A stretch of 32,000 nt of DNA, from the NCBI RefSeq assembly GCF_004168625.1, contig NZ_SDWW01000001.1:101501-133500 (forward strand), given 5' to 3'. Positions 6,852 through 26,020 of the stretch are shown here, one piece after another. The notes below the pieces were generated by a model. That model was not told the origin of the DNA and searched no databases. It saw only the letters and a program-made list of their open reading frames with translations. Source of the DNA: Pengzhenrongella frigida. Its GTDB lineage: Bacteria; Actinomycetota; Actinomycetes; Actinomycetales; Cellulomonadaceae. The translations under genes were made by a program, and so were the position numbers. How positions within the stretch are numbered: position 1 is the stretch's first letter; each line of letters opens with the position of its first letter.

Positions 6852-8375
6852 ATGGACACCACTCTGCCCCAGACCGGGGCGCGCCCCGCCCCCGCCGCCG
6901 ACCCGGCGCGTCCCGATCCCCGCCGTTGGTGGGGACTGGCGGTCATCTCCCTCGCCCAGCTCATGGTCGTGCTCGACATGACGATCGTGAACATCGCCCT
7001 GCCGTCCGCCCAGGCGGACCTGGGCATCTCCGATGCCGACCGGCAGTGGGTGATCACGGCCTACACGCTCGCGTTCGGCGGGCTGCTCCTGCTCGGCGGC
7101 CGCATCGGTGACCTGATCGGTCGCAAGCGCGCGATGATCATCGGCCTCATCGGCTTCGCCGCCGCGTCGGCGATCGGCGGCGTGGCGGCCACCGGCGCGC
7201 TGCTGCTCGGGGCGCGGGCCCTGCAGGGCGTCTTTGCCGCCCTCCTCGCACCCGCGGCGTTGTCGCTGGTGAGCGTCACGTTCACCGAACCGCACGAGCG
7301 CGCCCGCGCCTTCGGCATCTACGGCGCCATCGCCGGTGGTGGCAGCGCGGTGGGGCTCATCCTCGGCGGCCTGCTGACCGAGTACCTGGACTGGCGCTGG
7401 TGCCTGCTCGTGAATGCCCCGATCGCCATCCTCGCCGTGCTCGGCGCCAGCGCGTTCCTGCACGACCAGCGCAAGGAGGCCGAGACCCGTCTTGACGTGC
7501 TCGGCGCGGTGCTGGCCAGCGGCGGCCTCCTGGCCATCGTCTACGGCCTGAGCGAGGCGGAGCAGCACGGCTGGACCTCGGGGTTCGTGCTCTCGCTGCT
7601 CGCGGGCGGGCTGGTCCTGCTCGCCCTGTTCGTCGTGGCCGAGACCCGGGTGGCCCACCCCCTGCTGCCGCTGCGTGTGCTGCGCGACCGCAACCGCGCC
7701 GGCGCGCTGCTCAGCGTCGGCCTCACCACCGTCGGCATGTTCGGCATGTTCCTGTTCCTGACGTACTACCTGCAGGTCACGCTCGGCTACTCGCCCGTGC
7801 GCACCGGGCTCGCCTTCCTGCCGCTCACCGCCGGGATGATGACCGGCGCGGTCGGGATCGCGGCCCGGCTGCTGCCCCGGGTGCCGGCCCGGATGATCAT
7901 GACCCCGGGGCTGCTGGTCGCGGCCACCGCGCTCATCCTGCTCACCCGGATCGAGGTGGACTCGAGCTACGTGACGCACGTCCTGCCGTCGATGGTGCTG
8001 CTCGGGATCGGCATGGGTTCGACCTTCATGCCGGCGATGAGCACGGCGACCTTCGGCGTCGAGCCACGAGACGCCGGCGTGGCCTCGGCCACCGTGAACA
8101 CCGCCCAGCAGGTTGGTGGGTCGATCGGGATCGCGCTGCTCAACACGGTCGCCACCTCGGCCACAGCGCGCTACCTCACCACGCACGGCTCGGATCCGCT
8201 GGCCCAGGCGGCCGGCGTCGTGCACGGGTTCTCCGTCGCGATCTGGTGGGCCGTCGCGTTCCTGCTCACGGCTGCCGTCGCAGCAGCCGTCCTGATCACC
8301 GCGCGTCCGGCTGCGGTGCGGGCCGCCGACGACGGCGCGGCCACCTCGGCCGAGCCCGTCGCGGTCCTCGTGTGA
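6852..8375 (+). CDS. MFS transporter, DHA2 (EmrB/QacA-like, 14-TMS) drug:H+ antiporter
   Basis: This is ORF 6744..8375, trimmed to MDTTLPQ.... It carries WWGLAVISLAQLMVVLDMTIVNIALPSAQADLGISDADRQWVITAYTLAFGGLLLLGGRIGDLIGRK, the DHA2 signature. It is divergent from the TetR gene. Confidence 0.9.
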   Translation: MDTTLPQTGARPAPAADPARPDPRRWWGLAVISLAQLMVVLDMTIVNIALPSAQADLGISDADRQWVITAYTLAFGGLLLLGGRIGDLIGRKRAMIIGLIGFAAASAIGGVAATGALLLGARALQGVFAALLAPAALSLVSVTFTEPHERARAFGIYGAIAGGGSAVGLILGGLLTEYLDWRWCLLVNAPIAILAVLGASAFLHDQRKEAETRLDVLGAVLASGGLLAIVYGLSEAEQHGWTSGFVLSLLAGGLVLLALFVVAETRVAHPLLPLRVLRDRNRAGALLSVGLTTVGMFGMFLFLTYYLQVTLGYSPVRTGLAFLPLTAGMMTGAVGIAARLLPRVPARMIMTPGLLVAATALILLTRIEVDSSYVTHVLPSMVLLGIGMGSTFMPAMSTATFGVEPRDAGVASATVNTAQQVGGSIGIALLNTVATSATARYLTTHGSDPLAQAAGVVHGFSVAIWWAVAFLLTAAVAAAVLITARPAAVRAADDGAATSAEPVAVLV

Positions 8376-8379
8376 GGGC

Positions 8380-8407
8380 GCGGGGTGGGCGTGCGCGCCC
8401 ACCCCGC
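8380..8407 (+). terminator. GC-rich hairpin after the MFS gene (12-bp perfect stem, 4-nt loop)
   Basis: GCGGGGTGGGCG-tgcg-CGCCCACCCCGC starts 5 nt after the stop codon. There is no U-tract, which is common in high-GC actinobacteria. Confidence 0.5.
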
Positions 8408-8416
8408 CCCCGCTGG

Positions 8417-8432
8417 ATACCCATGGGGGTAT
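8417..8432. promoter_or_regulatory. CsoR/RcnR-family-type operator candidate ATACCC-ATGG-GGGTAT
   Basis: An AT-flanked C/G-tract palindrome overlaps a TATAGT -10-like hexamer (8430-8435). It lies 36 nt upstream of the 8468 start. It resembles the ATACCC...GGGGGTAT sites that I recall for CsoR. Confidence 0.45.
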
Positions 8433-8467
8433 AGTTCGGCACCGGTTGACCAACGAGGAGGACAAAC

Positions 8468-8638
8468 GTGTGCCGTGCCGTGAGCTGCAGGACGTGCGGA
8501 AAGACGACGTGGGCGGGCTGTGGTCAGCACGTCGACCAGGTCATGCGCGGGGTCGCCCGAGCCGACCGGTGCCAGGGGCACGAGAACGAGGTGTCGACAC
8601 GGACCGGGTTCTTCTCCCGGCTCTTCGCCCGAAGCTGA
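8468..8638 (+). CDS. Small (56 aa) Cys-rich protein, conserved-hypothetical type: MCRAVSCRTCGKTTWAGCGQHVDQVMRGVARADRCQGHENEVSTRTGFFSRLFARS
   Basis: It is not in the ORF track, being under the apparent 60-aa cutoff. The GTG at 8468 is preceded by GAGGAGGA (8455-8462) with 5-nt spacing. 49 of 56 codons end in G or C, matching the coding bias here. It has 5 Cys and 2 His, including C-x2-C. Confidence 0.7.
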   Translation: MCRAVSCRTCGKTTWAGCGQHVDQVMRGVARADRCQGHENEVSTRTGFFSRLFARS

Positions 8639-8644
8639 CCGCGC

Positions 8645-9976
8645 TCAGGCGTCGGCGGACGCCGCCGTCGCCGTGACGGCGTCGTCGCGCGTCCGGACCG
8701 CAAGGCCCGGGATCGCGCGACCGAAGGCCACGAGCCGGTACACCGTGTAGCCGGCGAGGCCGAGGCTGACGACCGCGAACAGCGCGACGACCACCGGGTT
8801 CGTCACGGGCCACGCGAACCAGATCGTCGCGAACAGGTAGCCGAGCCCGAGCCAGAAGCAGGACCCGATCAGCCGGAATGTCGGCGTCCAGCCCATGATG
8901 TACGCCTTCATGAGCACGTCGGTGAGCCAGCTGCCGCGCACGGGTAGCAGCGACATCGCCTTCGACGTGATCGTCAGGGGCCCGATGGCCTCGGTGGAGC
9001 GCGACGTCCCCGAGAGCGCCTCACCGGCGTAGCTCGGGCGCAGCGACCGGGCGAAGTACACGAACGACAGCGCAGCGAGCGGCCAGGCGGTGAGGGCGAA
9101 CATCCCGACGATCCAGCCGAAGAGCAGCGCGAGCGGCGGGCCGAGCAGGACGACGACCAGGATGAGCTTGAGCGGGTTCGCCTGGAGGTCCACGATGCCG
9201 GCGGCGGCCGAGAGCGGCGTGTCCGCCAGCCCGATCGGATGGCGGTCGGAGAGGGCGATGGGCAGCGCGGCGGCCATCGCCAGGATGATGAGCCAGAGCG
9301 CGACCCAGATCGTGCCCATGGCGAAGTAGCCGAAGGGCCGCAGGATCAGCCGCGACACCGGCAGGCGCTCCCCGGGCTGCAGCGTGCGGGCTGGCCCGCG
9401 CACCGCGCTGATGACCGATCCCCAGCCGACACCCGCCAGGATCGCGCAGACGCCGATGAGGATGCCGTACATCGCGCCGCCGGCGACGGTGTCGTCCACC
9501 TCGTAGTTGCGGTACGCCACCCCGGTCGACCAGAGCACCGCGAGGGTGACGAGCGCGGCCGTGAAGACGGCCCCGGCGAGGCCGAACATGAGCAGGGTGG
9601 AGTGGTGCCGGACGCGGGCACGGAAGGCCGCCCGGCTGGCGCCACCGATCGGCAGGTTGGACAGCAGGCCGATGCCCCCGACGAGGATCGCGAACACGCC
9701 GGCAGCCAGCGGGACCACCGACCCCGCGCTCCACGCCCCCGGACCCGCCAGGACCCAGCCGGCGCGATCGGCCCCGCCGCCGAGTCGACCGGGCATCGGT
9801 GAGCCCTGCGCACCGAGCCAGACCAGATACAGCCCGACGACGACGGCGGCGCCGCGCAACGCGAGCCCGAAGGGCGGCATCGGCCCCTCGTTCGGCGCCT
9901 TCTCCCGCGACCCGCGCGACGCGGTATCGCCCGGCGGGACGTCCTGGTCCGGCCGTGCGCGGTGATCGGTTGCCAT
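8645..9976 (-). CDS. Polytopic integral membrane protein of unknown function (443 aa, about 10 TM)
   Basis: This is ORF 8645..10051, trimmed to MATDHRARPDQD... with an AGGAG upstream of the ATG at 9976. GC3 is high and there are many hydrophobic helices. I recognise no family signature. Confidence 0.7.
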   Translation of the reverse strand: MATDHRARPDQDVPPGDTASRGSREKAPNEGPMPPFGLALRGAAVVVGLYLVWLGAQGSPMPGRLGGGADRAGWVLAGPGAWSAGSVVPLAAGVFAILVGGIGLLSNLPIGGASRAAFRARVRHHSTLLMFGLAGAVFTAALVTLAVLWSTGVAYRNYEVDDTVAGGAMYGILIGVCAILAGVGWGSVISAVRGPARTLQPGERLPVSRLILRPFGYFAMGTIWVALWLIILAMAAALPIALSDRHPIGLADTPLSAAAGIVDLQANPLKLILVVVLLGPPLALLFGWIVGMFALTAWPLAALSFVYFARSLRPSYAGEALSGTSRSTEAIGPLTITSKAMSLLPVRGSWLTDVLMKAYIMGWTPTFRLIGSCFWLGLGYLFATIWFAWPVTNPVVVALFAVVSLGLAGYTVYRLVAFGRAIPGLAVRTRDDAVTATAASADA

Positions 9977-10216
9977 GGTGACTCCTGGTGCGGGAAGGGT
10001 TCGCGACGGCTCGCGCGCAGCGAACACGCACCTCAGACCGCTAGGGCGCACAAAGGTTAACCGACCGATCCGCCAGCGGCGGCCCGTCTGGTTGGCGCGG
10101 CGGACGCGGGAACAGCGGCGTGACGAGCCGGTCTTCGTCGAGCCGGTCCAGCCGCGCGGGTTCCGTCTCGCGATCGCTAGGCTCGCCCCAGGTCCACTCT
10201 CCCAAGGAGGTCCGGC

Positions 10217-10267
10217 ATGCCGCTGACCTGCATGCCGTCGACCTGGCCCCGGCGGAGGACCGCGTGA
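10217..10267 (+). CDS. Candidate 16-codon leader ORF (MPLTCMPSTWPRRRTA) coupled to the CDF gene
   Basis: AAGGAGG (10204-10210) lies 6 nt before the ATG at 10217. Its TGA stop (10265-10267) overlaps the GTG start at 10264 as GTGA. Confidence 0.3.
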   Translation: MPLTCMPSTWPRRRTA

Positions 10268-11214
10268 GCGGCGGTGCGCCCTCCGGTGCGCCCTCTGCGG
10301 CGGGCCCCGCCGTCGGGAACGGACCGCCGGGAGAGCAGCGGGCCCTCATCGAGTCGATCGTCGGCGCGGGCGTCCTCGGCCTCCTCGCGCTCGGCTGGGG
10401 CGTCGTGGCGCAGTCGCGCGTCCTTCTCTTCGACGGCGTGTTCGTCCTGCTCGGCATCGTGCTGTCAGCCCTGTCACTGATGGCGGCACGCGCGGCGGGC
10501 TCCGCTCCCACCGCACGGTTTCCCTTCGGCAAGCGGGCCGTGACACCGCTCGCGATCGCCATCCAGGGCGCAGCGCTGCTCGGCACGCTCGTCTACGCGG
10601 CCGCTGACGCGGTCGCCATCGTGATCGCCGGCGGGTCAGACGTCGCCGCGACCACCGTGGTGATCTACGGGCTGATCTCGATGGTGAGCTCGTACGGGTT
10701 GAGCCGTTGGCTGTCTCGCCGGGCACCGAGATCCGAGCTCGTGACGGCCGAGGTGGTGCAGTGGCGGGCCGGCGCTCTGCTGAGCCTCATGTACGCGGTG
10801 GGCGCGGGACTCGCGCTCGCCCTCGGCCTATGGGTCCCGGAGGAAGCCCTGCGCTACCTCGACCCCGGCCTGGTCCTGCTGGCGAGCGCTCTCCTCGCGC
10901 CGATACCGCTGCGCCTGCTGCGGGCGGCGGGGCTCGAGCTCTTGGAAGCGGCACCCCCGGCCGAGGTGACGGCTGCGCTCGGCGCCGCTATCGCCGCCGT
11001 GAGCGCGGAGTTCGGTCTCGATGCCCCGTTCGTCCGCGCAACGAAGCTCGGCGAACGGCTCTACGTCGAGGTGGACTTCGTCGTGCCCGCGGGGGTGTGG
11101 GACGTCTCCGGAGAGGATCGTGTGCGGCGGGGTCTCATCAGCCGGCTCGAGCCGCTCGGCTACGAGCTGTGGGCCAACGTCGAGCTCACCACCGATCCCG
11201 CGCTGGCCACCTAG
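10264..11214 (+). CDS. Cation diffusion facilitator (CDF)-like transporter
   Basis: This is ORF 10120..11214, trimmed to the GTG at 10264, which has its own GGAGGA (10254-10259). CDF hallmarks are present: six N-terminal TM helices, FPFGKRAVTPLAIAIQGAAL, and a C-terminal alpha/beta domain (ATKLGERLYVEVDFVVP). Confidence 0.75.
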   Translation: MSGGAPSGAPSAAGPAVGNGPPGEQRALIESIVGAGVLGLLALGWGVVAQSRVLLFDGVFVLLGIVLSALSLMAARAAGSAPTARFPFGKRAVTPLAIAIQGAALLGTLVYAAADAVAIVIAGGSDVAATTVVIYGLISMVSSYGLSRWLSRRAPRSELVTAEVVQWRAGALLSLMYAVGAGLALALGLWVPEEALRYLDPGLVLLASALLAPIPLRLLRAAGLELLEAAPPAEVTAALGAAIAAVSAEFGLDAPFVRATKLGERLYVEVDFVVPAGVWDVSGEDRVRRGLISRLEPLGYELWANVELTTDPALAT

Positions 11215-11263
11215 GGCGCTCGCAGGCTCACCGGCCGATCCGGCAGGTGGCACATCGGCAGCC

Positions 11264-11626
11264 CTACGGGTGCGCCGGCTCCGGGGGAACCCGTGCCGGG
11301 TAGTTCGCTACGAGGTCGGTGTCGGCACCGATGACCCCGAAGGCCGCCGCGCCGCCGGGAGCGCCCAGCGGTTCGCTGCGCCCGGGCAGCGGCTCGTCGA
11401 AGAAGAGCGCGTTGTCGGCCAGGAACGGGCCGAACGCGCTCGGCAGGTCGTCCTCGTAGAAGATGGCCTCCACCGGGCAGACGGGTTCGCACGCACCGCA
11501 GTCGATGCACTCCGTCGGGTTGATGTACAGCGATCGTTCGCCCTCATAGATGCAGTCGACCGGGCACTCCTCGACGCAGGCTCGGTCCAGCACGTCGATG
11601 CACGGCGCGCCGATCACGTAGGTCAT
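11264..11626 (-). CDS. fdxA: 7Fe ([3Fe-4S][4Fe-4S]) ferredoxin, FdxA-type
   Basis: [62 protein letters not shown] shows the classic actinobacterial FdxA cysteine pattern. Confidence 0.9.
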
Positions 11627-11748
11627 CGCACTCCTCCAGCTGCCTCCGGTGCGCGACAGGGTGAGGTCCAGCGCCCTTCGCGGGGACGGCGGCGCGCCTC
11701 AACCGAAGAAGGGCAGGGGCCCGTCGAGGCGACGCCGCCGCGATCAGT

Positions 11749-11770
11749 TTATACGACTTTTCTCGTATTA
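11749..11770. promoter_or_regulatory. AT-rich inverted repeat TTATACGA-cttttc-TCGTATTA
   Basis: The arms match at 7 of 8 bp. It lies directly after the nirK stop (11773-11775) and about 125 nt upstream of the fdxA start. Its AT content is conspicuous in this GC-rich DNA. Confidence 0.3.
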
Positions 11771-11772
11771 AC

Positions 11773-14442
11773 TCAGTCGGTCACGGCGAGGATGCCGTGG
11801 GCGCCGCGCTCGGCGTCGACCATGCGGTGCGAGACGAACGGGTAGTGGCCGGCCTCGGGCATCACGAGCTCGACGAACCCGCCCTGCGCGGGCTGCAGCC
11901 CGAGGACCTGCGCCCCGCCGGTCTCTCCTGCCCCGGCGCGCGGGCCGCCGAGCTGGTAGGCACCCTCCAGGAAGACCGTGTCGAACTGACCGCCCACGAC
12001 ATGGAAGGCCGAGGACCGGTTGGGCCCGGCGTCGAGCACCCAGATCCGGACCCGCTCCCCCACCCGCGCGGTCAGGGGCCGGCGGTCGTACTGGTTCGGG
12101 TACCCGTTGAACGCCACCGCGTCCGGCGACTCGGCGGCGATCAGGGCGGGGTCGGCGATGTCACCCTGCGGCCCGAAGTACTGCTCGGACTGCACCAGGA
12201 CGTACTCCCGGTCCACCGCCGGCAGGTCGGGCGGGTCGATGATGACCGCCCCGAACATCCCGTTCGCGATGTGCAGGGACATCGGCATGGTGGCGCAGTG
12301 GTACATCCAGATCCCCGAGCGGGTCGCGGTGAACCGATAGGTCAGCTCCTCCCCCGGTTCGATCGTGCGCATCGGCCCGTCGGGGGCGAGCGCACCGGCG
12401 TGGAAGTCGATCGAGTGCCCGATGCTGCCGTCGTTGACGAGCGTGATCTCGAACATGTCCCCGACCCGTCCGCGCAGCACCGGCCCCGGCGCGGTGCCAC
12501 CGAACGTCCAGATCGTCTGACGGACCCCCGGCGCGACCTCGGTCTCGACCTCCTCGACCACCAACCGCTCGCGGTGCACGGTCGGCTCCGCCGCGGGGGC
12601 GAGCACCGCGTCCCGCAGGGCGGCGTCCGGGCCGGGTTCGGCCTGCAGGTCCAGGTCGTCACCCGCAGAGTCAGCACTCGCCGCATCACCTGCATCACCG
12701 GCGTGGCCCGCATCGTGCTCGCTCGCGGTCGACCCGTCGGCGCTGCCGCCGAGGACCACCACGTCGAAGACCATCCCCATCTGCCGGTGCCCGGCGATGG
12801 AGCACCACCCGGCCAGGTCGCGGCCGACGACGCCGACCTCGACCCGTGTGGTCGCGTGCGGCGCGAGTCGGCCCGAGCCGCCGCCGGAGTCCAGGACGAG
12901 ATCGTGCACGCTGGCGTCGGTGTTGGTCACCACGAGCACAAGCTCGTCGCCGGCCTGGACCTGGACCGAGGACGGGACGAAGCGCATGTCCCGGGCCTCG
13001 ACCGCGATCTCGACCACCGTGCCGGACGGCTGGACCCCGTCGGCCGCTGCGGCCCCCAGACCGACGCTCGCCGGGTCGGCCGCGATCCCCGCCACCACCA
13101 CCAGGGCGAGGGCCGCCCCGGCCGCGATCGACTGGCCCCGACGCCCCCGACGCCGCCCCACCTGTTCGGCGGGCACGGCGGCCGGCCCACCGGGCGGCCC
13201 GACGACGGGCATCGGCCCCGCCGGCCGCGGCCGGCGGGAGACCACGGCCACCCGCACGAGCAGCACCGGGGTCCAGATCAGGGCGCCGAGCACGAGCATG
13301 GACGCCCCGACGCGCAGCAGGCTGGGGCCCGGGAGCAGGCACAGCGCCAGGCCACCGTTGACCAGGACGAGCCGCGCGGGACCGCCCCGGTCGGCGATCG
13401 CATTCGTGGCCCGGACCACCGCGGGGCCGCCGCCCAAGATCATCGGCACGAGATAGCTGAGCGACCCGAGCAGCACCTGCGCCGCAAAGCCGACCGCGAG
13501 CGGAGCGAGCAGCGCCCCGACCCGGACCTCGGCAGCCGGCCAGCTCGCCGCGGTGGCCAGCATGACCGTCCACGAGAGCACGGATCCGCACAGCCACACC
13601 CACGCGGCGGCCACGGACCAGGTCGCGAACGACGACGGCGCGCGGCGCCGGGCCTCGCCGACCAGCGGCGCAGCCGTACGGGCCAGCCCCGACGCATAGA
13701 GGCCCACGCCCGCCGCAGCGAGCCCGAGCATGCCGGTCGCGGCGCCGGTCACGACCACGGCCAGCCCCGATCCCAGGGCGACCAGGCCCTGTCGGGCGGC
13801 CCGCTCGGCACCGGGTTCCACCCGCACGCGGAGCATCGTGGGCCACAGCGTGACGAGGGTGCCCATGACGGTCAGCCCGATCCAGCCGAGCAGCATGGTC
13901 GCCAGGTGCGCGACGTACAGGCGCGCGTGCGCCGAGCCGTCGGATCGGGCAAGGAGGACGCCGAGGGCGATCCCGACCGGCAAGGTCAGCGCGGCCGCCA
14001 CGAAGTACGACGTCGTCCAGCCGAGGGAGGAGGCCAGCGCGCGGCGGCCCTGGTCCCAGAGCACGACGGCGTGCCAGCCCACCACCAGGGCGACCAGCAC
14101 CGACCCGATCACCACCACGGTCGACCTGCCGGTGGACATCCCGACGATCGTCGTCACCGCGCCGACCGTGTGTGCCGCGAGGCGGATGGCCTGATCGCGA
14201 TGGCCACCGCGCAGCGGCCGGCGCCGCACCGCCTCGGCGAAGTGGGCGCTCCAGATGAGGATCGCGGCGCTGACCGCACCCAGGAGCAGCAGGTGAACCA
14301 TGAGCCACCGCGCGTCGGGCACCCCGCGGTGCCCGATCGCGACAGCAGCACCCGCGACCAGCCAGCCGAGCACGATGGCGTTCACCCGGAGGTGCCAGCG
14401 GGATCTCACGCGACCACCTCGGCGCCCGACGGCTCGGTGCAT
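11773..14442 (-). CDS. nirK: Copper-containing nitrite reductase (NirK) fused to an N-terminal polytopic membrane domain and a cupredoxin domain
   Basis: This is a single 889-aa ORF. Residues 1-455 contain about 12 hydrophobic helices. Residues 473-563 are a cupredoxin with H513, C547, H552 and M557. Residues 620-889 are the NirK core: GHSIDFH, YHCATMPMSLHIANGM, AFHVVGG and VSHRM. Confidence 0.9.
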   Translation of the reverse strand: MHRAVGRRGGRVRSRWHLRVNAIVLGWLVAGAAVAIGHRGVPDARWLMVHLLLLGAVSAAILIWSAHFAEAVRRRPLRGGHRDQAIRLAAHTVGAVTTIVGMSTGRSTVVVIGSVLVALVVGWHAVVLWDQGRRALASSLGWTTSYFVAAALTLPVGIALGVLLARSDGSAHARLYVAHLATMLLGWIGLTVMGTLVTLWPTMLRVRVEPGAERAARQGLVALGSGLAVVVTGAATGMLGLAAAGVGLYASGLARTAAPLVGEARRRAPSSFATWSVAAAWVWLCGSVLSWTVMLATAASWPAAEVRVGALLAPLAVGFAAQVLLGSLSYLVPMILGGGPAVVRATNAIADRGGPARLVLVNGGLALCLLPGPSLLRVGASMLVLGALIWTPVLLVRVAVVSRRPRPAGPMPVVGPPGGPAAVPAEQVGRRRGRRGQSIAAGAALALVVVAGIAADPASVGLGAAAADGVQPSGTVVEIAVEARDMRFVPSSVQVQAGDELVLVVTNTDASVHDLVLDSGGGSGRLAPHATTRVEVGVVGRDLAGWCSIAGHRQMGMVFDVVVLGGSADGSTASEHDAGHAGDAGDAASADSAGDDLDLQAEPGPDAALRDAVLAPAAEPTVHRERLVVEEVETEVAPGVRQTIWTFGGTAPGPVLRGRVGDMFEITLVNDGSIGHSIDFHAGALAPDGPMRTIEPGEELTYRFTATRSGIWMYHCATMPMSLHIANGMFGAVIIDPPDLPAVDREYVLVQSEQYFGPQGDIADPALIAAESPDAVAFNGYPNQYDRRPLTARVGERVRIWVLDAGPNRSSAFHVVGGQFDTVFLEGAYQLGGPRAGAGETGGAQVLGLQPAQGGFVELVMPEAGHYPFVSHRMVDAERGAHGILAVTD

Positions 14443-14481
14443 GCCGAGCCGCGCGGGCCCCTGCTGGTCACGTCCGGCGGG

Positions 14482-14844
14482 TCAGGCTGCGGTGCGGCGC
14501 GTGAAGCTGAGCCGCCAGGCCTCCGGGCCGCGCTCGAGGTAGCTGACCGTGAACTCGTCCGGCCAGCGCTGCTCGATCTGCGCGAGGAGCGGGAGCGGGT
14601 CGTGCGGGGCGACCAGGATCAGGCCGGCGCCGGGTGCGATCGAGTCGAGCGCCCCGAAGATGGTGGCGTGCCGGATCGCGTGCGGAACCGTGCGCGCATC
14701 CAGCTCCGGGTACTGCGGGCCGTCCACCTCGCCGCAGGTGCAGCTCCCGCCGCACCCGGCCTCCGCGGTGCCGTCGGCGAGGGCTTCGGCCTCGTTCGCG
14801 GCGATGGCCTCGGCCTCGTTCGAGGCGATGACGACGTCCTTCAT
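14482..14844 (-). CDS. DUF2249 domain protein
   Basis: This is the C-terminal 120 aa of ORF 14482..15699, starting at MKDVVIASNEAEA with a GGAGGA Shine-Dalgarno. It carries LDARTVPHAIRHATIFGALDSIAPGAGLILVAPHDPLPLLAQIEQRWPDEFTVSYLERGPEAWRLSF, the DUF2249 pattern. The N-terminus has CGGSCTC. It ends 39 nt upstream of nirK. Confidence 0.8.
   Translation of the reverse strand: MKDVVIASNEAEAIAANEAEALADGTAEAGCGGSCTCGEVDGPQYPELDARTVPHAIRHATIFGALDSIAPGAGLILVAPHDPLPLLAQIEQRWPDEFTVSYLERGPEAWRLSFTRRTAA
14782..14829 (-). repeat. In-frame 24-bp tandem duplication (22 of 24 identical) in the DUF2249 gene
   Basis: ggcttcggcctcgttcgcggcgat is followed directly by ggcctcggcctcgttcgaggcgat. These encode IASNEAEA and IAANEAEA. 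Confidence 0.85.
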
Positions 14845-14976
14845 GGTGATCCTCCAGCTCAGCGGCGCGACCGGCCACACGGGTGCGGCCGCGGAGACTG
14901 GCGACCTCCACCGGATATTACTACAATCAACTCCGTGGAAAATAACCCGTGGTCGCGAACCCCGGCGAGCACCGGC

Positions 14977-15687
14977 ATGGGGCCTCGCCCGGCGGTCGCC
15001 ATCGCTGCTTCCGGGTCGACCCCGTCGCTGTCGACCTCGCGTCGCGCGCTGCTGGCGACCCTGCGCTCGCAACCCGGACCCGTCACCCTCACCGCCCTGG
15101 GCGCAGCCACCGGGCTGCACGTCAACACCGTGCGCGAGCACCTGGCCGCCCTCACCGACGCGGGTCTGGTGACGCGCGGCCGCGCCGCGCCGCACGGCCG
15201 GGGGCGTCCGGCTGCGACCTACACGGCGTCGACCGACCCGGCGACGGGGTCCGAGCCGGCCCCCGTCAGCGCGGAGTACGCCGGGCTCGCGGCCGCGCTC
15301 GCCTCCACGATCCACCGCACGAGCAGCTCCCCCAGCCACGACGCCACCGTCGCGGGCACCGAGTGGGGCCGGGAGCTCGCCCGCAACCGGCCAGGCCCTC
15401 CCCCCGCCGACGACGTCGATCCGCGCGGCCGGGTCGTGCAGCTCCTCGCCGACCTCGGCTTCGCCCCGCGGCCCGCCGACGGGCCGCCCGCCGTGCTGCT
15501 CACCCGCTGCCCGCTGCTGGAGACCGCGCACGCCTACCCCGACGTGGTCTGCGCCGTGCACCTCGGCATCGTGCGCGGCGCGCTCGGCGAGTTCGGCGCC
15601 GACCCCGCGGGCGCCGAGCTGCACCCGTTCTCGGATCCCGGCGCCTGCCGGCTCGACCTGGCCCGCACCGACCGGGTCCCGCGATGA
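14977..15687 (+). CDS. Winged-HTH (ArsR/SufR-like) transcriptional regulator with a C-terminal Cys3His motif, paralog 1
   Basis: This is the last 236 aa of ORF 11797..15687, from the ATG at 14977. The HTH reads LTALGAATGLHVNTVREHLAALTDAGLV...GRGRPAATY. The C-terminus has C178-x13-C192-x2-H195-x28-C224. It is divergent from the DUF2249-nirK pair. Confidence 0.75.
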   Translation: MGPRPAVAIAASGSTPSLSTSRRALLATLRSQPGPVTLTALGAATGLHVNTVREHLAALTDAGLVTRGRAAPHGRGRPAATYTASTDPATGSEPAPVSAEYAGLAAALASTIHRTSSSPSHDATVAGTEWGRELARNRPGPPPADDVDPRGRVVQLLADLGFAPRPADGPPAVLLTRCPLLETAHAYPDVVCAVHLGIVRGALGEFGADPAGAELHPFSDPGACRLDLARTDRVPR

Positions 15688-16463
15688 CCGCGACCGCACC
15701 GACCCACGGCGGCTCTCAGCGGAGCCGGCCGCCGAGCCCCGCCAAGCGCCGGCTGCGAAAGTACCTCCCGCCGCAGCACGGCGCCTGGGCGATGCTGCTC
15801 GTCCCGTTCCTGGTCGCGCTGGTCACCGCCGGCGTCGACTGGGTGCAGGTCCCGCTGCTCCTCGCCTGGCTCGCCGGGTACCTGCTGTCGTACTACGCGT
15901 TCCTCGCCCTCAAGACCCGACGCCCGGCGCGGGTGCTCCCCCAGCTGCGCCTGTACGCGGCCCTCACGGTGCCCGCCGCCCTGGTGGTGGTCGTCCTGCG
16001 ACCGGCGGTCCTCTGGTTCGCGCCCGCCTACGCCGCCCTGCTCGCGGTGAACGCCTGGTACGCCTGGCACCACCGCGATCGCGCCCTGACCAACGACCTC
16101 GCCTCGGTGGTCCAGGGCTGCCTGATGGTCCCGGTCGCCGCCACCGTGGCGGGGGTGTCACCGGTCGCCGTGCTCGAGCCGTTCGTGGTCGTGCTGCTGT
16201 ACTTCCTCGGCACCGTGCTGTTCGTCAAGACGATGATCCGCGAGCGCGGCGACGAGAGCTTCCTGCGCGGATCGATCGCCTTCCACGTGGTGGCGGCGGT
16301 CCTGGCCGGTCTCCTCGCCTGGCCGTTGGCCATCCTGTTCGTCTGGTTCGCCGTGCGTGCGGCCTGGCTGCCGCGCTACGCGATGACGCCGAAGTCCGTC
16401 GGGTTCGTGGAGATCGGCAACTGCGTGGCGCTCCTCGGAGCGATCGCCCTGCTCGCCGGGTAG
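15684..16463 (+). CDS. YwiC-like family membrane protein
   Basis: This is the C-terminal 259 aa of ORF 14949..16463. It carries KYLPPQHGAWAMLLVPFLVALV plus about 8 TM helices. Its ATG overlaps the regulator's stop as ATGA. Confidence 0.75.
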   Translation: MTATAPTHGGSQRSRPPSPAKRRLRKYLPPQHGAWAMLLVPFLVALVTAGVDWVQVPLLLAWLAGYLLSYYAFLALKTRRPARVLPQLRLYAALTVPAALVVVVLRPAVLWFAPAYAALLAVNAWYAWHHRDRALTNDLASVVQGCLMVPVAATVAGVSPVAVLEPFVVVLLYFLGTVLFVKTMIRERGDESFLRGSIAFHVVAAVLAGLLAWPLAILFVWFAVRAAWLPRYAMTPKSVGFVEIGNCVALLGAIALLAG

Positions 16464-16487: not shown

Positions 16488-18461
16488 TCAGCGCCGGGCG
16501 GGTTCGGTGGCCCGCCTGGCGTTGTTCCGCACGAAGGCCACGGGGGCGCCGGCCGCGGCGGGGGTGTGGCTCTGCGTGCGGCTGCGGAGCAGTCGCATGG
16601 CGTTGAGGATGACGACCAGGACCGACACCTCGTGCACGAGCATCCCGGCCGCCATCGTGACCCCGCCGACCAGGACCCCGAGCAGCAGCAGCGACACGGT
16701 GGCCAGTGCGACGGCGATGTTCTGGTGCATGTTCGCCACCGTCCGGCGCGCGAGCCGGATGGCCTCGGGCAGCTTCAGCAGGTTGTCGGCCATCAGGGCG
16801 ATGTCGGCCGTCTCGAGGGCGACGGCCGATCCGGCCGCGCCCATGGCGACCCCGAGGTCGGCGACCGCCAGCGCGGGGGCGTCGTTGACGCCGTCGCCCA
16901 CCATGGCCACGACGTAGCCCGCGGCCTGCAGCTCACGGACGACATCGAGCTTGTCCTGCGGCAGCAGCCCGGCCCGCACCTCGTCGACGCCGGTGGCCTC
17001 ACCCACGGCGACGGCGACCGGCATGGCGTCCCCCGTGAGCATGACGACCTTGCGCACGCCCGCCCGGCGCAGCTCGCCGACCATCTGCGCGGCGTCGGGG
17101 CGGACCTCGTCGGCGACGGCGACCACGCCGACCACGACGCCGTCGACCGCCACGATCATCGGGGTGCGGCCCGCGACGGCGAGGTCATGGGCCACCTGGC
17201 CGCTCCCCCGGTCGTCAGCCACCCCGAACTGGGTCAGCAGGGCGAGGTTGCCGACGAGCAGGCGATGTCCCCCGCTGGTCGCCGTGATGCCCTTGCCCGG
17301 GATGGACTCGGTGACCTCGGGCAGCCGGTCGGTGGGCAGCCCCTCGGAGCGGGCCGCGTCCAAGACCGGGCGCGCCAGGGGGTGCTCGGAGCCCGCCTCG
17401 GCCAGCGCGGCCCAGCCCAGGACGGCGGCGCGATCCGCGTCCGGGCCGAGCACGACGACGTCGGTCAGCCGCGGGCGACCGCGAGTGAGCGTGCCGGTCT
17501 TGTCGACGGCGACCGCGGTGATCTTCGCCGACTTCTCCAGGTACTCCCCGCCCTTGATCAAGATGCCGTCCTTGGCCGCGCGGCCGATGCCGGCCACGAT
17601 CGAGACCGGGATGGAGATCACCATCGCCCCCGGGCAGCCGATCACGAGCAGGGTCAGCGCCAGGACGACGTCCCCGGTGAGCACCCCCGCCACGACCGCC
17701 AGCACGATGATCGCGGGCGTGTACCAGGCGGAGAACCGGTCCATAAAACGCTGCGTCCGGGCCTTGGCGTCCTGCGCCTCCTCGACGCGATGGATGATCC
17801 GCGCGAGCGTCGTGTCGGCCCCCACCCCGGTCGCCCTCACCTGCAGCAGGCCGCCACGCGAGACCGTGCCGGCGAACACCTGGTCCCCGACCGCCTTATC
17901 CACCGGGATCGACTCCCCGGTGATCGAGGCCTGGTCGACGGCACCGGTCCCGGCGAGGACCTCGCCGTCGACCGGCACCTTCGCGCCGTTCTTGACCAGC
18001 ACCGTCTCGCCCATGGCGACAGCGGCGGCGGCCACCTCGACCTGGCCGCCGTCGCGCAGGACGACGGCGACGTCCGGTGCGACGGCGACCAGCTCAGCCA
18101 GGGCAGACCGGGTCCGGCTCAGCGTCGCCTGCTCCAGGGCGTGGCCGACGGCGAACAGGAACGTCACCGCGGCCGCCTCCCAGTACTGACCGATCACCAC
18201 CGCACCGATGGACGCCACGGCGACGAGCAGGTCGATGCCGATCACCCGCGCCAGCAGCGCGCGGACCGCGTGCAGGGCGATCGGGGTCCCCGCCACGACG
18301 GCGGCCAGGGCCATCACCGTGTCGCCGGCGACCCCGGCCCCGGCCAGGCCGGTGATGGCGGCCGAGCCCGCGATGAGCAGCCCGCTCACCGCGGGGATCC
18401 CCCACCGGCCGTGCAACCCCGCGTGCAGCTCGGTGTGCAACCTGGTGTGCAGCGTTCTCAT
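16488..18461 (-). CDS. Heavy-metal translocating P1B-type ATPase (atypical CPG transmembrane motif, no fused HMA domain)
   Basis: This is ORF 16488..18857, trimmed to MRTLHTRLHT with an AAGGAG Shine-Dalgarno. It carries TGES, DKTGTLT, SEHPLA and GDGVNDAPAL. TM4 reads LLVIGCPGAMVISIP. It has eight predicted TM helices. Confidence 0.9.
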   Translation of the reverse strand: MRTLHTRLHTELHAGLHGRWGIPAVSGLLIAGSAAITGLAGAGVAGDTVMALAAVVAGTPIALHAVRALLARVIGIDLLVAVASIGAVVIGQYWEAAAVTFLFAVGHALEQATLSRTRSALAELVAVAPDVAVVLRDGGQVEVAAAAVAMGETVLVKNGAKVPVDGEVLAGTGAVDQASITGESIPVDKAVGDQVFAGTVSRGGLLQVRATGVGADTTLARIIHRVEEAQDAKARTQRFMDRFSAWYTPAIIVLAVVAGVLTGDVVLALTLLVIGCPGAMVISIPVSIVAGIGRAAKDGILIKGGEYLEKSAKITAVAVDKTGTLTRGRPRLTDVVVLGPDADRAAVLGWAALAEAGSEHPLARPVLDAARSEGLPTDRLPEVTESIPGKGITATSGGHRLLVGNLALLTQFGVADDRGSGQVAHDLAVAGRTPMIVAVDGVVVGVVAVADEVRPDAAQMVGELRRAGVRKVVMLTGDAMPVAVAVGEATGVDEVRAGLLPQDKLDVVRELQAAGYVVAMVGDGVNDAPALAVADLGVAMGAAGSAVALETADIALMADNLLKLPEAIRLARRTVANMHQNIAVALATVSLLLLGVLVGGVTMAAGMLVHEVSVLVVILNAMRLLRSRTQSHTPAAAGAPVAFVRNNARRATEPARR

Positions 18462-18511
18462 GATCGGGCTCTCCTTCGGCAGGTCGACAGGTTCCGGGCT
18501 GGGCCGCGCGG

Positions 18512-18790
18512 TCAGAACGCCGCGGGGGCGGAGGTGTACCCGGCCTTGGCGACCGCGGCCACCAGCGCCTCGACCCCGACGACCTGCGGGTCGTGGTCGA
18601 TCTCGATGCGACCCGAGGCGAAGTGCACCGCGACGGCGTCGACCCCGGCCACGCGGCCGACCTGCTTCTCGATCTTCGCCACGCACGACGGGCACGAGAA
18701 CCCCTCGGCCCGCAGGATCGTGCGGGTGGTCGCTGTGGGGTTGGTGGCGGTGGGGTTGGTGGCGGTGGGGTTGGTGGCGGTGGTGCTCAT
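18512..18790 (-). CDS. Heavy-metal-associated (HMA) domain metallochaperone
   Basis: This is ORF 18512..18895, trimmed to MSTTATNPTATNPTATNPTATTRTILRAEGFSCPSCVAKIEKQVGRVAGVDAVAV.... It has the CxxC HMA fold pattern. It ends 50 nt upstream of the ATPase. Confidence 0.85.
   Translation of the reverse strand: MSTTATNPTATNPTATNPTATTRTILRAEGFSCPSCVAKIEKQVGRVAGVDAVAVHFASGRIEIDHDPQVVGVEALVAAVAKAGYTSAPAAF
18735..18779 (-). repeat. Perfect 15-bp x3 tandem repeat inside the HMA gene (encodes the TNPTA x3 N-terminal tail)
   Basis: gtggggttggtggcg is repeated three times without a mismatch. Confidence 0.95.
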
Positions 18791-18992
18791 GATCGGACCT
18801 CTTTCGATGGTGCGGCTCGCCCCGTTCGAGGCGACTGACCCTGACGTTTCCAGGCACCCGGCGAAGCGAACATGACGTGGGTCAATCAACGGCACATCGG
18901 CGTGGGATCGACGTGCGTCGGCGGGGTCGGGGACCTCGCCGGGGAGCGCGCCGGACCGGGGCGATACGCTCGCGCTGAGCCCAGGAGTCGAT

Positions 18993-21293: not shown

Positions 21294-23690
21294 GTGGCAC
21301 GGACGACGCCTGAAACGGGACAGCTGGGCAAGCGCTCGGAGCTGCTGGTCTCGAAGGGGTGGATCCAGGGCGTCGCCCTGGTGATGCTCTTCGGATTCTT
21401 CATCATGGGTCTGCTGGCCCTGCGCACGTACACCGACTCCATGCCCCAGCCCACGCAGGTGGTCGACTCCCAGGGCGAGGTCGTGTTCTCCGGTGCGGAC
21501 ATCACCGCCGGTCAGCAGATCTTCCTGCGCCGAGGCCTGCAGCAGTACGGCTCGATCGTGGGCCACGGCGGGTACCTCGGCCCGGACTACACCACCGACT
21601 ACCTGCGCCGCTCGTCGCTGTTCATCCTCGACGAGCTCACCGCCTCCGGCATCCAGGACCCTCGCGGCGAGCTGGTCAAGGTCATGCGGACCAACCGGTA
21701 CGACGCGGACACCGGGACCCTGGTGCTGACCGATCTGCAGGTGCGGGCGTTCGAGGACGTCAAGGGTCACTACGCGGACTTCTTCGGCTCGCCGACCACG
21801 CAGTACGGGTTGCTCCCGAACGTGATCACCAACCCCGCTGACATCAACCAGCTGACGGCGTTCTTCGCCTGGACCGCCTGGGGCGCCGCCGCCGAGCGCC
21901 CGGGGCACGACTACTCGTACACGAACAACTGGCCCCCCGAGAAGCTCGTCGACAACACCCCCACCGCCGACCTGCTCGTGTGGAGCGCGCTGTCCCTGGC
22001 CGCGCTGCTCCTGGGCACCGGGGTGCTGTTCGCCCTGTACGGCCGCTGGAGCAAGAGGATCGGCTGGCAGAACGCCGAGGCGCCGCCGTTGTCGTTCAGG
22101 CAGCCGGGCGAGGTCGCGGTGACTCCCGCCCAGCGGGCCACCGCCTGGTTCTTCTTCGTGGTCGCGCTGCTCTTCCTCGGCCAGGCGCTGCTCGGCGCCG
22201 CCGCCGAGCACTACCGCGCCGACCTCACCAGCTTCTTCGGCCTGGACCTCGCGCGGATCCTGCCGTTCAACATGGCCCGCACCTGGCACGTCCAGCTGTC
22301 CCTGTTCTGGACCGCGGCGTCGTTCCTGGCCGCCGGGATCTTCATCGCCCCGTACGTCTCGGGCCGCGAACCCAAACGACAGCACTGGTTGGCGTACGGC
22401 CTGCTCGGTGCCATCGCGCTGGTCGTCGTCGGCTCCATGACCGGCGAGGCGCTGAGCATCTTCGGCGTCGAGTGGGCCAAGGGTTCCCCGCTGTGGGACC
22501 AGCAGTGGGAGTACCTCGACCTGCCCAAGGTCTGGCAGGGCCTGCTGACCGTCGGGATGTTCTTGTGGATCGCGATCATCTACCGCGGGATCCGCGCCCG
22601 GCTGAAGACCGAGAACCGGGCGAACCTGCCCTGGCTCTTCTTCTACTCGGGCCTGGCCATCCCCGGCTTCTACGCCGTCGGCATGCTGGCCGGCACCGAG
22701 ACCCAGCTGACGGTCGCCGAGTTCTGGCGCTTCTGGGTCGTCCACCTGTGGGTGGAGGACTTCCTGGAGCTCTTCACGACCGTGATGGTGGCGTACATCT
22801 TCGTCATGCTCGGCGTGATCCGCCGCCAGATCGCGATGACGATCATCTTCCTCGACGTCATCCTGTACTCCGCCGGTGGCGTCATCGGCACCATGCACCA
22901 CCTGTACTTCTCCGGCACGCCGGTCGAGCACATGGCCCTGGGGTCGGTCTTCTCCGCCCTGGAGATCATCCCGCTGACGTTCCTGACCATCGAGGCGTGG
23001 AGCTTCCTCCAGCTCGGAGCGCGACAGCAGTCGCGCAGCGCAGCTCCTTTCCCGCACCGGTGGGCGGTGATGTTCCTGGTCGCCGTCGGATTCTGGAACT
23101 TCCTCGGCGCCGGGGTGTTCGGGTTCCTGCTCAACCTGCCGATCGTGTCCTACTACGAGATCGGCACGGCGCTGACGGCCAACCACGCCCACGGTTCGAT
23201 GATGGGCGTCTACGGGATGATGGGCGTGGGCCTGTCCCTGTTCGCGCTGCGGTACCTGATCCCCGCACGCCGCTGGCCCGACCGGCTCGCGAAGATCTCG
23301 TTCTGGTCGCTCAACATCGGCCTGGCCTGGATGGTCTTCGCCACCCTGCTGCCGCTCGGCATCATCCAGCTGTGGCACTCCGTCAACGACGGGTACTACG
23401 AGGCCCGCTCGCTGGCGTTCATCAACACCCCGGGGAACGCCGTCCTGGAGTGGCTGCGGATGCCCGGCGACCTCATCTTCATCGGCGGTGGCGTGCTGCC
23501 GTTCCTGTGGATCACCTGGCTCGGGGTGCGGTACCGGATCACGGCGACCACGCACGTCGTGCCGCAGGAGACGCTCTTCGTCGAAGAGGTCCCGGTCGCG
23601 GTGGGAGCCGGCGACCCGCTGACCCCGAAGTACGGGTCGGACGGCCGTACCGACCGCGACGGCGGGCAGGGCCTGGACCGGGAGCCCTGA
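21294..23690 (+). CDS. norB: Quinol-dependent nitric oxide reductase (qNOR, single-subunit NorB/NorZ type)
   Basis: The 798-aa product has the N-terminal qNOR extension (GWIQGVALVMLFGFFIMG...ITAGQQIFLRRGLQQYGSIVGHGGYLGPDYT). This is followed by a heme-copper oxidase subunit I-like 12-TM core with conserved His (HHLYF, HAHGSMMG). Confidence 0.92.
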   Translation: MARTTPETGQLGKRSELLVSKGWIQGVALVMLFGFFIMGLLALRTYTDSMPQPTQVVDSQGEVVFSGADITAGQQIFLRRGLQQYGSIVGHGGYLGPDYTTDYLRRSSLFILDELTASGIQDPRGELVKVMRTNRYDADTGTLVLTDLQVRAFEDVKGHYADFFGSPTTQYGLLPNVITNPADINQLTAFFAWTAWGAAAERPGHDYSYTNNWPPEKLVDNTPTADLLVWSALSLAALLLGTGVLFALYGRWSKRIGWQNAEAPPLSFRQPGEVAVTPAQRATAWFFFVVALLFLGQALLGAAAEHYRADLTSFFGLDLARILPFNMARTWHVQLSLFWTAASFLAAGIFIAPYVSGREPKRQHWLAYGLLGAIALVVVGSMTGEALSIFGVEWAKGSPLWDQQWEYLDLPKVWQGLLTVGMFLWIAIIYRGIRARLKTENRANLPWLFFYSGLAIPGFYAVGMLAGTETQLTVAEFWRFWVVHLWVEDFLELFTTVMVAYIFVMLGVIRRQIAMTIIFLDVILYSAGGVIGTMHHLYFSGTPVEHMALGSVFSALEIIPLTFLTIEAWSFLQLGARQQSRSAAPFPHRWAVMFLVAVGFWNFLGAGVFGFLLNLPIVSYYEIGTALTANHAHGSMMGVYGMMGVGLSLFALRYLIPARRWPDRLAKISFWSLNIGLAWMVFATLLPLGIIQLWHSVNDGYYEARSLAFINTPGNAVLEWLRMPGDLIFIGGGVLPFLWITWLGVRYRITATTHVVPQETLFVEEVPVAVGAGDPLTPKYGSDGRTDRDGGQGLDREP

Positions 23691-24439
23691 TGGGCGACGT
23701 CGAGATCACGGTCTGGCTCGCGTGCGGCTACGCGATCTTCCTGCTCCTGGTCGCCTTCGTGCTGGACCTCAGCGCCCGGCACGCGGCGACCCGGACCCAG
23801 GCCTGGCGATCGGGCACGTTCACCTACCAGGAGGACCACGACGCCTGGGTGTGCGAGGAGGACCAGTGGCTGTGGCCGATGTCCTTCGACCCGGACAGCC
23901 GGGTGATGCGCTACCGGGCCAACCCGAAGGCCTGCAACGCCTGCCCGAACAGCTGCACGACCTCGGAGCTCGGCCGCGAGGTCACCCGCAACGTGGACCC
24001 CTGGCCGAGCTCCGAGGTCGAACGGTTCCACCGGGGCATCGCGTGCGCGGTCGTGGTCCTGGCGGTCATCTGGCCGCTGGCAACCATGATCGGCTCGCGG
24101 ACCCCGGCCGAGCTCGCGGTGCTGGCCGGGGCCGCGCTGGGCGTCTCGGCGGCCAGCTGGCCGCTGTGGTCGCACCTGCACCGCACGCCGGCGCGGTTCC
24201 CGGGGCACATCAAGTCCGAGACGGTGGACCAGGCGATGGACGCCCGGTCCGCCGCGGTCGCCGCCGCGGCCCTGCGTCCGATCGTCTACCGCAGCGACCG
24301 GCGCGCCGCGGGCAGCGGCCCGGTGCCGGTGACGATCGCCGCACGAAGCGCGTTCGCCACCCGATGGGGCGCGTTCGAGAACCCGGCGGCGGGCGACCCC
24401 CCGCTGCCGTCCAGATCGAGCAGGACGGACAACCCATGA
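23690..24439 (+). CDS. Membrane protein with a Cys cluster (C55-x26-C82-x2-C85-x3-C89), unknown function, coupled to norB
   Basis: This is the C-terminal 249 aa of ORF 21980..24439. Its ATG at 23690 shares one base with the norB TGA. It has three TM segments and WVCEEDQWLWP...KACNACPNSC. Confidence 0.65.
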   Translation: MGDVEITVWLACGYAIFLLLVAFVLDLSARHAATRTQAWRSGTFTYQEDHDAWVCEEDQWLWPMSFDPDSRVMRYRANPKACNACPNSCTTSELGREVTRNVDPWPSSEVERFHRGIACAVVVLAVIWPLATMIGSRTPAELAVLAGAALGVSAASWPLWSHLHRTPARFPGHIKSETVDQAMDARSAAVAAAALRPIVYRSDRRAAGSGPVPVTIAARSAFATRWGAFENPAAGDPPLPSRSSRTDNP

Positions 24440-25561: not shown

Positions 25562-26020
25562 TCAGGCGACGGGGATGGCGGGCGAACCGAGCGTGAGTGG
25601 CGTCGACGCGAGCCGCGGCTGATGCGCCAGCGAGGCGACCACGACGTCGTCCAGCTCGGAGTAGAACGCCGACCGGGCCCGGCCCAACGCCCCGCGCAGG
25701 CCGCAGCCGTCGAGCAGCGGGCAGTTGCCGGCGGGCGTCTCGCAGTCGGCGACGTCGGTTCGCCGCTCGAACGTGCGCAGCACCCAGCCCACCGTGACCT
25801 GCCGGCCGGCGGGGCTGATCCGCACCCCGCCGGAGCGGCCGCGGGTGACCTCGATCAGGTCGAGCTCCCGGAGCCGAGCGACGATCTTCGTCACGTGGTG
25901 GTAGGGCGTTCCGACCTGGACGGAGATGGCCTTGGACGTCATGACGTCCGCCCCGCCCGGTGCGGCGGCGAGCAGGATCAGGACCCGCAGGGAGACGTCC
26001 GAGAAAGCGTTGATCCGCAT
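25562..26020 (-). CDS. nsrR: Rrf2 family [Fe-S] regulator, NsrR-like
   Basis: The 152-aa product has the Rrf2 wHTH (MTSKAISVQVGTPYHHVTKIVARLRELDLIEVTRGRSGGVRI). It has three clustered Cys, CETPAGNCPLLDGC. Its context is divergent from narK-narGH and next to the norB operon. Confidence 0.75.
   Translation of the reverse strand: MRINAFSDVSLRVLILLAAAPGGADVMTSKAISVQVGTPYHHVTKIVARLRELDLIEVTRGRSGGVRISPAGRQVTVGWVLRTFERRTDVADCETPAGNCPLLDGCGLRGALGRARSAFYSELDDVVVASLAHQPRLASTPLTLGSPAIPVA

Follow-up and report, generated by a model that had tools for sequence, protein, structure and literature searches.

The nirK of Pengzhenrongella frigida encodes a membrane-integral copper nitrite reductase whose membrane domain is predicted to have a heme-copper oxidase-like fold

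The window analysed here, a 32,000-nucleotide stretch of DNA from Pengzhenrongella frigida, contains at 11773..14442 (- strand) a single open reading frame (ORF) that is the normal, intact nirK of this bacterium and encodes a member of the actinobacterial membrane-integral three-domain class of copper nitrite reductases (NirKs). From the N-terminus the protein comprises a membrane domain of 12 transmembrane (TM) helices, a cytoplasmic linker, a 13th TM helix, an additional cupredoxin, a second linker and the NirK catalytic core. NirKs with such a membrane domain are already known, having been described in silico between 2007 and 2017, and the protein itself is already annotated. What this analysis adds is the placement of the membrane module, on the basis of a structural model, in the predicted fold class of the heme-copper oxidases (HCOs).

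Helen et al. (2016; PMC4770552) reported a ~900-amino acid (aa) P. acnes NirK that carries a cupredoxin and a 400-aa TM domain, the function of which they gave as unknown, noting that it had been found previously (Ellis et al. 2007 is among their references), and observed that the cupredoxin is present in all actinobacterial NirKs while the TM domain is not. An 882-aa NirK with ~13 TM helices was described in Corynebacterium by Almeida et al. (2017; PMC5338063). Compared by published description, the enzymes of P. acnes (Propionibacterium/Cutibacterium acnes) and Corynebacterium pseudotuberculosis, which comprise 882-900 aa with a ~400-500-aa N-terminal domain of ~13 TM helices, a CX4HX4M cupredoxin and a clade II NirK core, show no essential difference from the Pengzhenrongella protein, which is an orthologue. 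In a Propionibacteriaceae locus of our collection (L068) the membrane domain, cupredoxin and NirK likewise share one frame. The architecture is thus not new. A preliminary description of this DNA, made from the sequence alone, had noted that no NirK built onto a large membrane domain was known to be biochemically characterized. This stands, as no biochemical study of a membrane-domain NirK was found in the literature searched.

The ORF is not interrupted and its G+C content at third codon positions (GC3) is 0.92-0.93 throughout, in agreement with the single unbroken high-GC3 frame noted previously. Translation from the ATG at 14442 yields 889 aa, whereas the GTG at 14409 (residue 12) yields 878 aa. 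As the GTG is preceded by GAGGTGG, the ATG lacks a ribosome-binding site and the RefSeq entry (WP_242511123.1, 878 aa) begins at the GTG, the latter is more likely the true start. The extent of the ORF is thus as originally given, although its assumed first codon probably is not; residue numbers throughout nevertheless count from the ATG at 14442, as in the preliminary description. An identical 889-aa protein has been deposited for Pengzhenrongella frigida (formerly Cellulomonas sp. HLT2-17) as a ‘copper oxidase' (RYV53002.1), and is named copper-containing nitrite reductase in UniProt. The G+C content of the window is ~72%, and a 1296-aa ORF on the opposite strand (11797-15687, +) is a high-GC shadow of nirK, in which only the last 236 codons, encoding a regulator, constitute a real gene.

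The C-terminal half of the protein consists of the extra cupredoxin (residues 473-563; 12754..13026, -), an Asp/His/Gly/Ala-rich linker (residues 564-619; 12586..12753, -), the length of which varies from 34 to 73 aa among orthologues, and the catalytic core (residues 620-889; 11773..12585, -). Pfam matches Cupredoxin_1 at residues 477-536 and Cu-oxidase_3 at 629-738, and the NirK equivalog model TIGR02376 aligns to residues 618-887. The score against TIGR02376, 156.6 bits, is below the curated cut-off of 296.3, perhaps because this model represents the clade II (SSFHV-type) sequences poorly. The closest solved relative is the Hyphomicrobium denitrificans enzyme HdNiR (PDB 2dv6), which aligns over residues 485-887 with an E value of 4.5e-46; Thermus scotoductus NirK (6tfd) aligns over 474-887 (E 3.3e-42), Geobacillus NirKs match at an E value similar to that of 2dv6, and NirK chains in the PDB cover the whole core at E 1e-44. 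The four-part anatomy proposed in the preliminary description is correct.

The cupredoxin contains a complete type 1 copper (T1Cu) site, comprising H513, C547, H552 and M557, and these four residues are invariant (100%) among the aligned fusions. The core retains its own T1Cu ligands (H676, C716, H724 and M729), which are shared by all 62 aligned sequences apart from M729L in five, and its type 2 copper (T2Cu) ligands (H681, H715 and H872) and catalytic D679 and H814 align to those of HdNiR and Geobacillus NirK. All 13 residues had been correctly located in the preliminary description, and they are kept in 61 orthologous fusions, the exceptions being M729L in five proteins, a single substitution of H814, and one substitution and one gap at H872. 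The copper ligands are thus intact in the orthologues, and the concern that a proper alignment might find some of them missing falls away. An extra N-terminal cupredoxin with a complete T1Cu site is what defines HdNiR-type enzymes, and the cupredoxin and two-domain NirK form an HdNiR-type unit located outside the cell. HdNiR and Thermus NirK align with this unit from end to end (from residue 474 or 485 to 887) and have in common with it the additional T1Cu site and a complete set of catalytic residues. In contrast to the Pengzhenrongella protein, however, both are soluble, and lack the 13 TM helices and the longer, acidic, His-containing linker.

The fusion is a conserved feature. A scan of one genome per species detected the membrane domain in at least 561 genomes. 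The best 80 of these are all labelled Actinomycetota except for one metagenome-assembled genome (MAG), and the carriers among them include Cellulomonas, Actinotalea, Sanguibacter, Demequina, Streptomyces, Mycobacterium, Mycolicibacterium, Rhodococcus, Cryobacterium, Georgenia, Kribbella and others. At 59 of the 82 loci inspected, from Cellulomonas, Actinotalea, Demequina, Streptomyces, Mycobacterium, Rhodococcus, Cryobacterium and further genera, all three parts of the fusion occupy one uninterrupted frame, in close and distant homologues alike, and separate genes are consequently not the rule, as they would be if the Pengzhenrongella ORF had been joined by error. At 10 loci the membrane protein stands alone (~420-460 aa) and still ends with the 13th TM helix; five further ORFs that contain only the N-terminal domain are cut by a contig end, the cupredoxin is missing at one locus, and the NirK core is lost or disrupted at two. 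The existence of stand-alone membrane proteins could be seen as a sign that the fused ORF is an artefact, produced when a frameshift, a mis-assembly or pseudogene formation joined two genes. The chance of this is negligible: the same in-frame fusion recurs at 59 loci across independent genomes, some of which are complete chromosomes, the GC3 is uniform, all ligands are conserved and the identical protein has been deposited, and the artefact reading is refuted.

Several loci deviate from the common arrangement. Sanguibacter inulinus (L005, 5986-7830) and P0001 retain the membrane domain and cupredoxin but have lost the greater part of the NirK core by deletion, in Demequina sediminis (L045) a frameshift lies inside NirK, and a fusion variant without the cupredoxin (L006/P0002) also occurs. 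At four stand-alone loci from Phycicoccus and Actinomycetales/Micrococcales MAGs (L053, at 8050-12692, L060, L019 and L035), a conserved ~390-aa ORF lies ~1-5 kb downstream. In L053 the ORFs that follow it resemble [NiFe]-hydrogenase subunits by eye only, which may be a coincidence.

The membrane domain proper (residues 12-401; 13240..14409, -) was modelled with AlphaFold2 as part of residues 1-481, using 84 homologues (mean predicted local distance difference test score (pLDDT) 82.8; predicted template modelling score (pTM) 0.79). The model displays 12 TM helices between residues 16 and 401, followed by a disordered Arg/Pro-rich stretch (residues 402-435; 13138..13239, -) of low pLDDT that contains eight Arg residues, and then by helix 13 at residues 436-454 (feature ~436-455; 13078..13137, -). 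The ~12 helices counted previously in residues 1-455 are therefore present, but are joined by a 13th. In the model the Arg-rich N-terminus and alternate Arg-rich loops all share one side of the membrane. Together with the odd number of helices, this predicts that the N-terminus and the Arg/Pro-rich linker are cytoplasmic and that TM13 carries the chain across the membrane, so that the cupredoxin and NirK lie outside, as the preliminary description had suggested.

With respect to sequence, the membrane domain does not belong to a catalogued family. Neither the N-terminal domain alone nor any of the 84 family members matched a Pfam or NCBIfam model, including those of NnrS, CopD, COX1 and the cytochrome b families, and a profile search against PDB sequences returned no match at E≤10; the domain thus does not fall, as had been considered, into an unrelated family of established function. 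An exhaustive search placed its homologues in 820 clusters at 50% identity, with lengths that are a mixture of ~400-480 aa and ~870-950 aa, and around half of the family representatives are no longer than 480 aa. Structural comparison was more informative. A Foldseek search of the PDB with the model returned 14 top matches that are all HCO subunit I or quinol-dependent nitric oxide reductase (qNOR) structures (cbb3 CcoN, ba3, aa3, bo3 and others). The first nine had a probability of 1.0 and template modelling scores (TMq) of 0.48-0.57 (rank 1, E 2e-3 and TMq 0.54), ranks 10-14 had TMq values of 0.36-0.50, and the first unrelated match had a TMq of 0.12. The domain is thus predicted from the model to have the 3 x 4-helix fold of HCO subunit I. 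Internal comparison is consistent with such repeats, the weak to moderate homology between units being detected by hhalign for units 1 and 2 (EU1/EU2, 51%, E 2e-5), EU1/EU3 (33%) and EU2/EU3 (9%).

Conservation across 122 divergent representatives of the domain revealed an invariant set of residues consisting of H50 (TM2), H179 (TM6), Q322 (TM10), R357, N362, W46, W64, W283 and several Gly and Pro, while H124 (88%) and H67 (79%) are partly conserved. H50 and H179 lie 5 and 10 residues, respectively, inward of the outer end of their helix, placing them in the outer third of TM2 and TM6, and are paired by the internal repeat alignment, in which they occupy equivalent positions of units 1 and 2. 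The domain therefore resembles subunit I of the HCO and nitric oxide reductase (NOR) superfamily (PF00115, including qNOR) in having 12 TM helices in three four-helix units, the first two of which each bear a His in their second helix. It differs in the other metal ligands. Four of the six canonical HCO His residues are missing, only those of TM2 (H50) and TM6 (H179) being present. With the helices assigned from the model, no conserved His was found in TM7 or TM10 across the 122 representatives, and the invariant polar residue of TM10 is instead Q322. As the His pair of TM7 and the TM10 His are absent, a binuclear haem-CuB/FeB catalytic centre in the membrane domain is excluded, and with it the possibility that the domain is a NOR-like catalytic unit that would make the fusion a nitrite-to-N2O (nitrous oxide) enzyme. 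In addition, no PF00115 (COX1) match was obtained for the domain or the 84 members, and its profile gave no hhalign signal against the qNOR encoded in the window. In oxidases a haem is bound by a His pair contributed by TM10 and TM2. By analogy, H50 and H179, related by pseudo-symmetry, could jointly bind one haem near the outer face of the membrane.

Proteins of this general kind have reportedly been recognized before: Pei, Li, Kinch and Grishin are said to have delineated, in 2014, families of 12-TM, three-unit HCO/NOR homologues that include NnrS, most of them with two conserved His and a proposed capacity to bind one haem. These families would resemble the Pengzhenrongella domain in their three repeat units, their two invariant His and a genomic context of denitrification and DUF2249. 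NnrS, whose gene adjoins nirK in alpha-proteobacteria and which was reported to contain haem and copper, was examined as a test case using the gene beside nirK on a Rhizobium plasmid and its collected homologues. An AlphaFold model of this NnrS (pLDDT 84.6) matched cbb3 CcoN in Foldseek (E 2.5e-6, TMq 0.68), more strongly than the membrane domain did, and the only confident matches of both models were cbb3 CcoN, qNOR and ba3, such that the likeness between the two is one through common targets. NnrS thus resembles the membrane domain in its 12 TM helices, its predicted match to cbb3 CcoN and HCO subunit I, and its genomic link to NirK and DUF2249. Conversely, it is encoded by a separate gene rather than within a fusion, its conserved His pattern is different (invariant H65 and H67 in TM2, H282 in TM9, H309 in TM10, and H331 just after TM10), and no sequence similarity between the two was detected. 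The suggestion in the preliminary description that the domain is NnrS-like therefore holds for the predicted fold but not for the sequence: as judged from the models, NnrS and the membrane domain fall into the same fold class, yet they cannot be recognized as members of one family.

The same Rhizobium plasmid (Rhizobium sp. NLR16a plasmid p5; L083) also provides a distant sequence relative. Adjoining nnrS and a divergent nirK, a cluster at 7777-12858 encodes a DUF2249 protein, a 450-aa membrane protein, a second DUF2249 protein and a DUF59-type factor. The unannotated family of the 450-aa protein aligns with the actinobacterial membrane domain in hhalign (79%, E 1.6e-5), offset by one four-helix unit, and one of its members matches Pfam COX1 at 1.9e-5, although hhalign gave no signal between this family and qNOR. 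By sequence, therefore, the membrane domain appears distantly related to COX1 through an indirect chain only, which passes through the Rhizobium family.

The role of the membrane domain was considered in the light of these data. We tentatively favour, at somewhat less than an even chance, the view that it is an accessory module of the NnrS kind, handling N-oxides or nitric oxide (NO) and tied to NirK, rather than an obligatory electron-input machine. The HdNiR-type nitrite reductase sits outside the cell, tethered via TM13 to the 12-TM domain of predicted HCO fold, in which H50 and H179 would together hold one haem close to the outer face. NirK would reduce nitrite to NO outside the membrane, and the module, physically coupled to the NO-making enzyme, would act on N-oxide or NO in concert with the DUF2249 protein and the ArsR-like regulator encoded alongside it. 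The NO would then be consumed by the qNOR, whose gene is 7 kb away. The membrane domain can function without NirK, as evidenced by the 10 stand-alone loci, the half of family representatives that do not exceed 480 aa and the variants devoid of the NirK core. The presence of stand-alone copies, together with gene partners that are cytoplasmic, argues that feeding NirK is at least not the sole job of the domain. The accessory role is placed first because the module persists without NirK and NirK occurs without the module, because the partners conserved with it are cytoplasmic proteins connected with responses to N-oxides, and because the proteobacterial adjacency of nnrS and nirK mirrors the fusion. 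Several observations nevertheless weigh against it. There was no NnrS (PF05940) match at E≤10 in the 84 family members, hhalign of the domain against the NnrS profile returned a probability of only 0.2-0.5%, even with a diverse profile (effective number of sequences (Neff) 4.6), and the number of invariant His is two in the membrane domain compared with five in NnrS. The E values of the Foldseek matches are modest, the best being 2e-3. The biochemical role of NnrS is itself undefined, making the proposal that the domain works like NnrS a weak mechanism. Haem binding by H50 and H179 is an inference, and bis-His haems typically serve electron transfer rather than the binding of ligands. Finally, the order membrane domain-cupredoxin-NirK looks like a wire.

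That order fits a different reading, developed from the quinol:nitrite reductase idea of the preliminary description, in which the protein would be a self-contained menaquinol:nitrite oxidoreductase. Menaquinol would be oxidized near the outer face, as in qNOR, by a haem b with H50 and H179 as its axial pair, and electrons would flow from the haem through the T1Cu of the tethered cupredoxin to the T1Cu and T2Cu of NirK. The sequence of membrane domain, TM13, cupredoxin and NirK is what such a path would require, the ligands of the extra T1Cu are completely conserved, the two invariant His are close to the outer ends of their helices, and the structural neighbours of the domain include quinol-dependent NOR. 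To our knowledge, the extra domain is a redox partner in every characterized fused NirK (HdNiR and the cytochrome c-fused forms), and we know of no soluble periplasmic carriers in actinobacteria. We nonetheless rank this reading, which remains a live rival, somewhat behind the first. Stand-alone copies lack an extracytoplasmic redox domain, and none is encoded nearby, the natural variant L006/P0002 dispenses with the cupredoxin, the conserved partners (DUF2249, often fused to hemerythrin, and the regulator) are cytoplasmic, no quinol-site motif was identified in the domain, and both the haem and its geometry are inferential; moreover, actinobacterial NirKs devoid of TM helices exist (PMC4770552). 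A third view, that the membrane domain is free of cofactors and either anchors the enzyme or has a part in assembly or transport (for example by delivering copper to the outer sites, or conducting nitrite or NO), appears less probable still. It would accord with the absence of four of the six HCO metal ligands, with the lack of any family annotation and with the heavy-metal P-type ATPase and cation diffusion facilitator (CDF) transporter encoded nearby; Gram-positive cells must, after all, anchor and metallate their extracytoplasmic cuproenzymes. A single TM helix or lipid anchor would, however, suffice for attachment, and TM13 already serves this purpose. The invariance of the intramembrane polar residues H50, H179, Q322, R357 and N362 in all 122 representatives points to a specific site within the domain, the sequence contains no Met- or Cys-rich copper-transport motifs, and the neighbouring ATPase is of the Zn/Cd type by score and is a neighbour at four loci only.

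Membrane-domain NirKs of actinobacteria are built unlike every biochemically studied enzyme, and the domain is encoded by at least 561 species-representative genomes. Soil actinobacteria that denitrify with NirK, among them members of Streptomyces, Mycobacterium, Rhodococcus, Cellulomonas and other genera, contribute to the release of NO and N2O. If the membrane domain were an electron-input module with a single bis-His haem (H50/H179) and a menaquinol site, the 878-aa polypeptide, with 39 TM helices in the trimer, would be a complete, carrier-independent menaquinol:nitrite oxidoreductase and a new respiratory enzyme, and would explain how NirK is supplied with electrons in actinobacteria without soluble cytochrome c or azurin. 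Should it instead handle NO in the manner proposed for an NnrS-like module, the fusion would provide a strong clue to the function of the poorly understood NnrS and HCO-homologue proteins. In either case the protein is a good, tractable target for expression, haem and copper analysis, and cryo-electron microscopy.

The genes around nirK were compared across 83 loci, fused and stand-alone forms together, within 6 kb of the membrane domain gene. The most consistent neighbour, at 62 loci, encodes a DUF2249 protein, and a homologue of the ArsR-like regulator is present at 60, in both cases irrespective of whether the domain is fused. In the Pengzhenrongella window the DUF2249 gene (14482..14844, -) is directly upstream of the fusion on the same strand, and the ArsR-like helix-turn-helix regulator (14977..15687, +), which has three C-terminal Cys, is divergently transcribed. 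At one stand-alone locus (L001) DUF2249 is fused to hemerythrin. In Haloferax, denitrifying conditions induce DUF2249 proteins, in Thermus such proteins take part in nitrate signalling, and a passage of PMC11218638 cites Pei et al. 2014 for a link between DUF2249 and the HCO superfamily. The Pengzhenrongella protein carries, before its DUF2249 domain, an N-terminal Cys cluster (CGGSCTCGE) that may be a metal or Fe-S site. A scan of 11100-15100 found no promoter or terminator, but is uninformative at 72% G+C.

The remaining neighbours are less conserved. An actinobacterial FdxA ferredoxin (11264..11626, -) is encoded 147 nt downstream of nirK on the same strand, and a YwiC-like membrane protein gene (15684-16463, +) overlaps that of the regulator by 4 nt; both are neighbours in the closest relatives only, five loci in the case of FdxA. 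A P1B-type ATPase (16488-18857, -), which has an N-terminal His-rich repeat (HRHQPH x3), was considered as the supplier of copper to NirK and rejected as improbable, since Zn/Cd-type models give it higher scores than Cu-type models do and few loci have it as a neighbour. Beyond these genes the window is a denitrification island that encodes a qNOR (21294-23690, +), an SPFH/Band 7 protein (23722-25296, +), an Rrf2/NsrR-like regulator (25562-26020, -), a NarK-type major facilitator superfamily transporter (26109-27404, +) and NarG (27489-31190, +), whereas nosZ was not seen anywhere in the window. The CDF transporter mentioned above is also encoded near the fusion.

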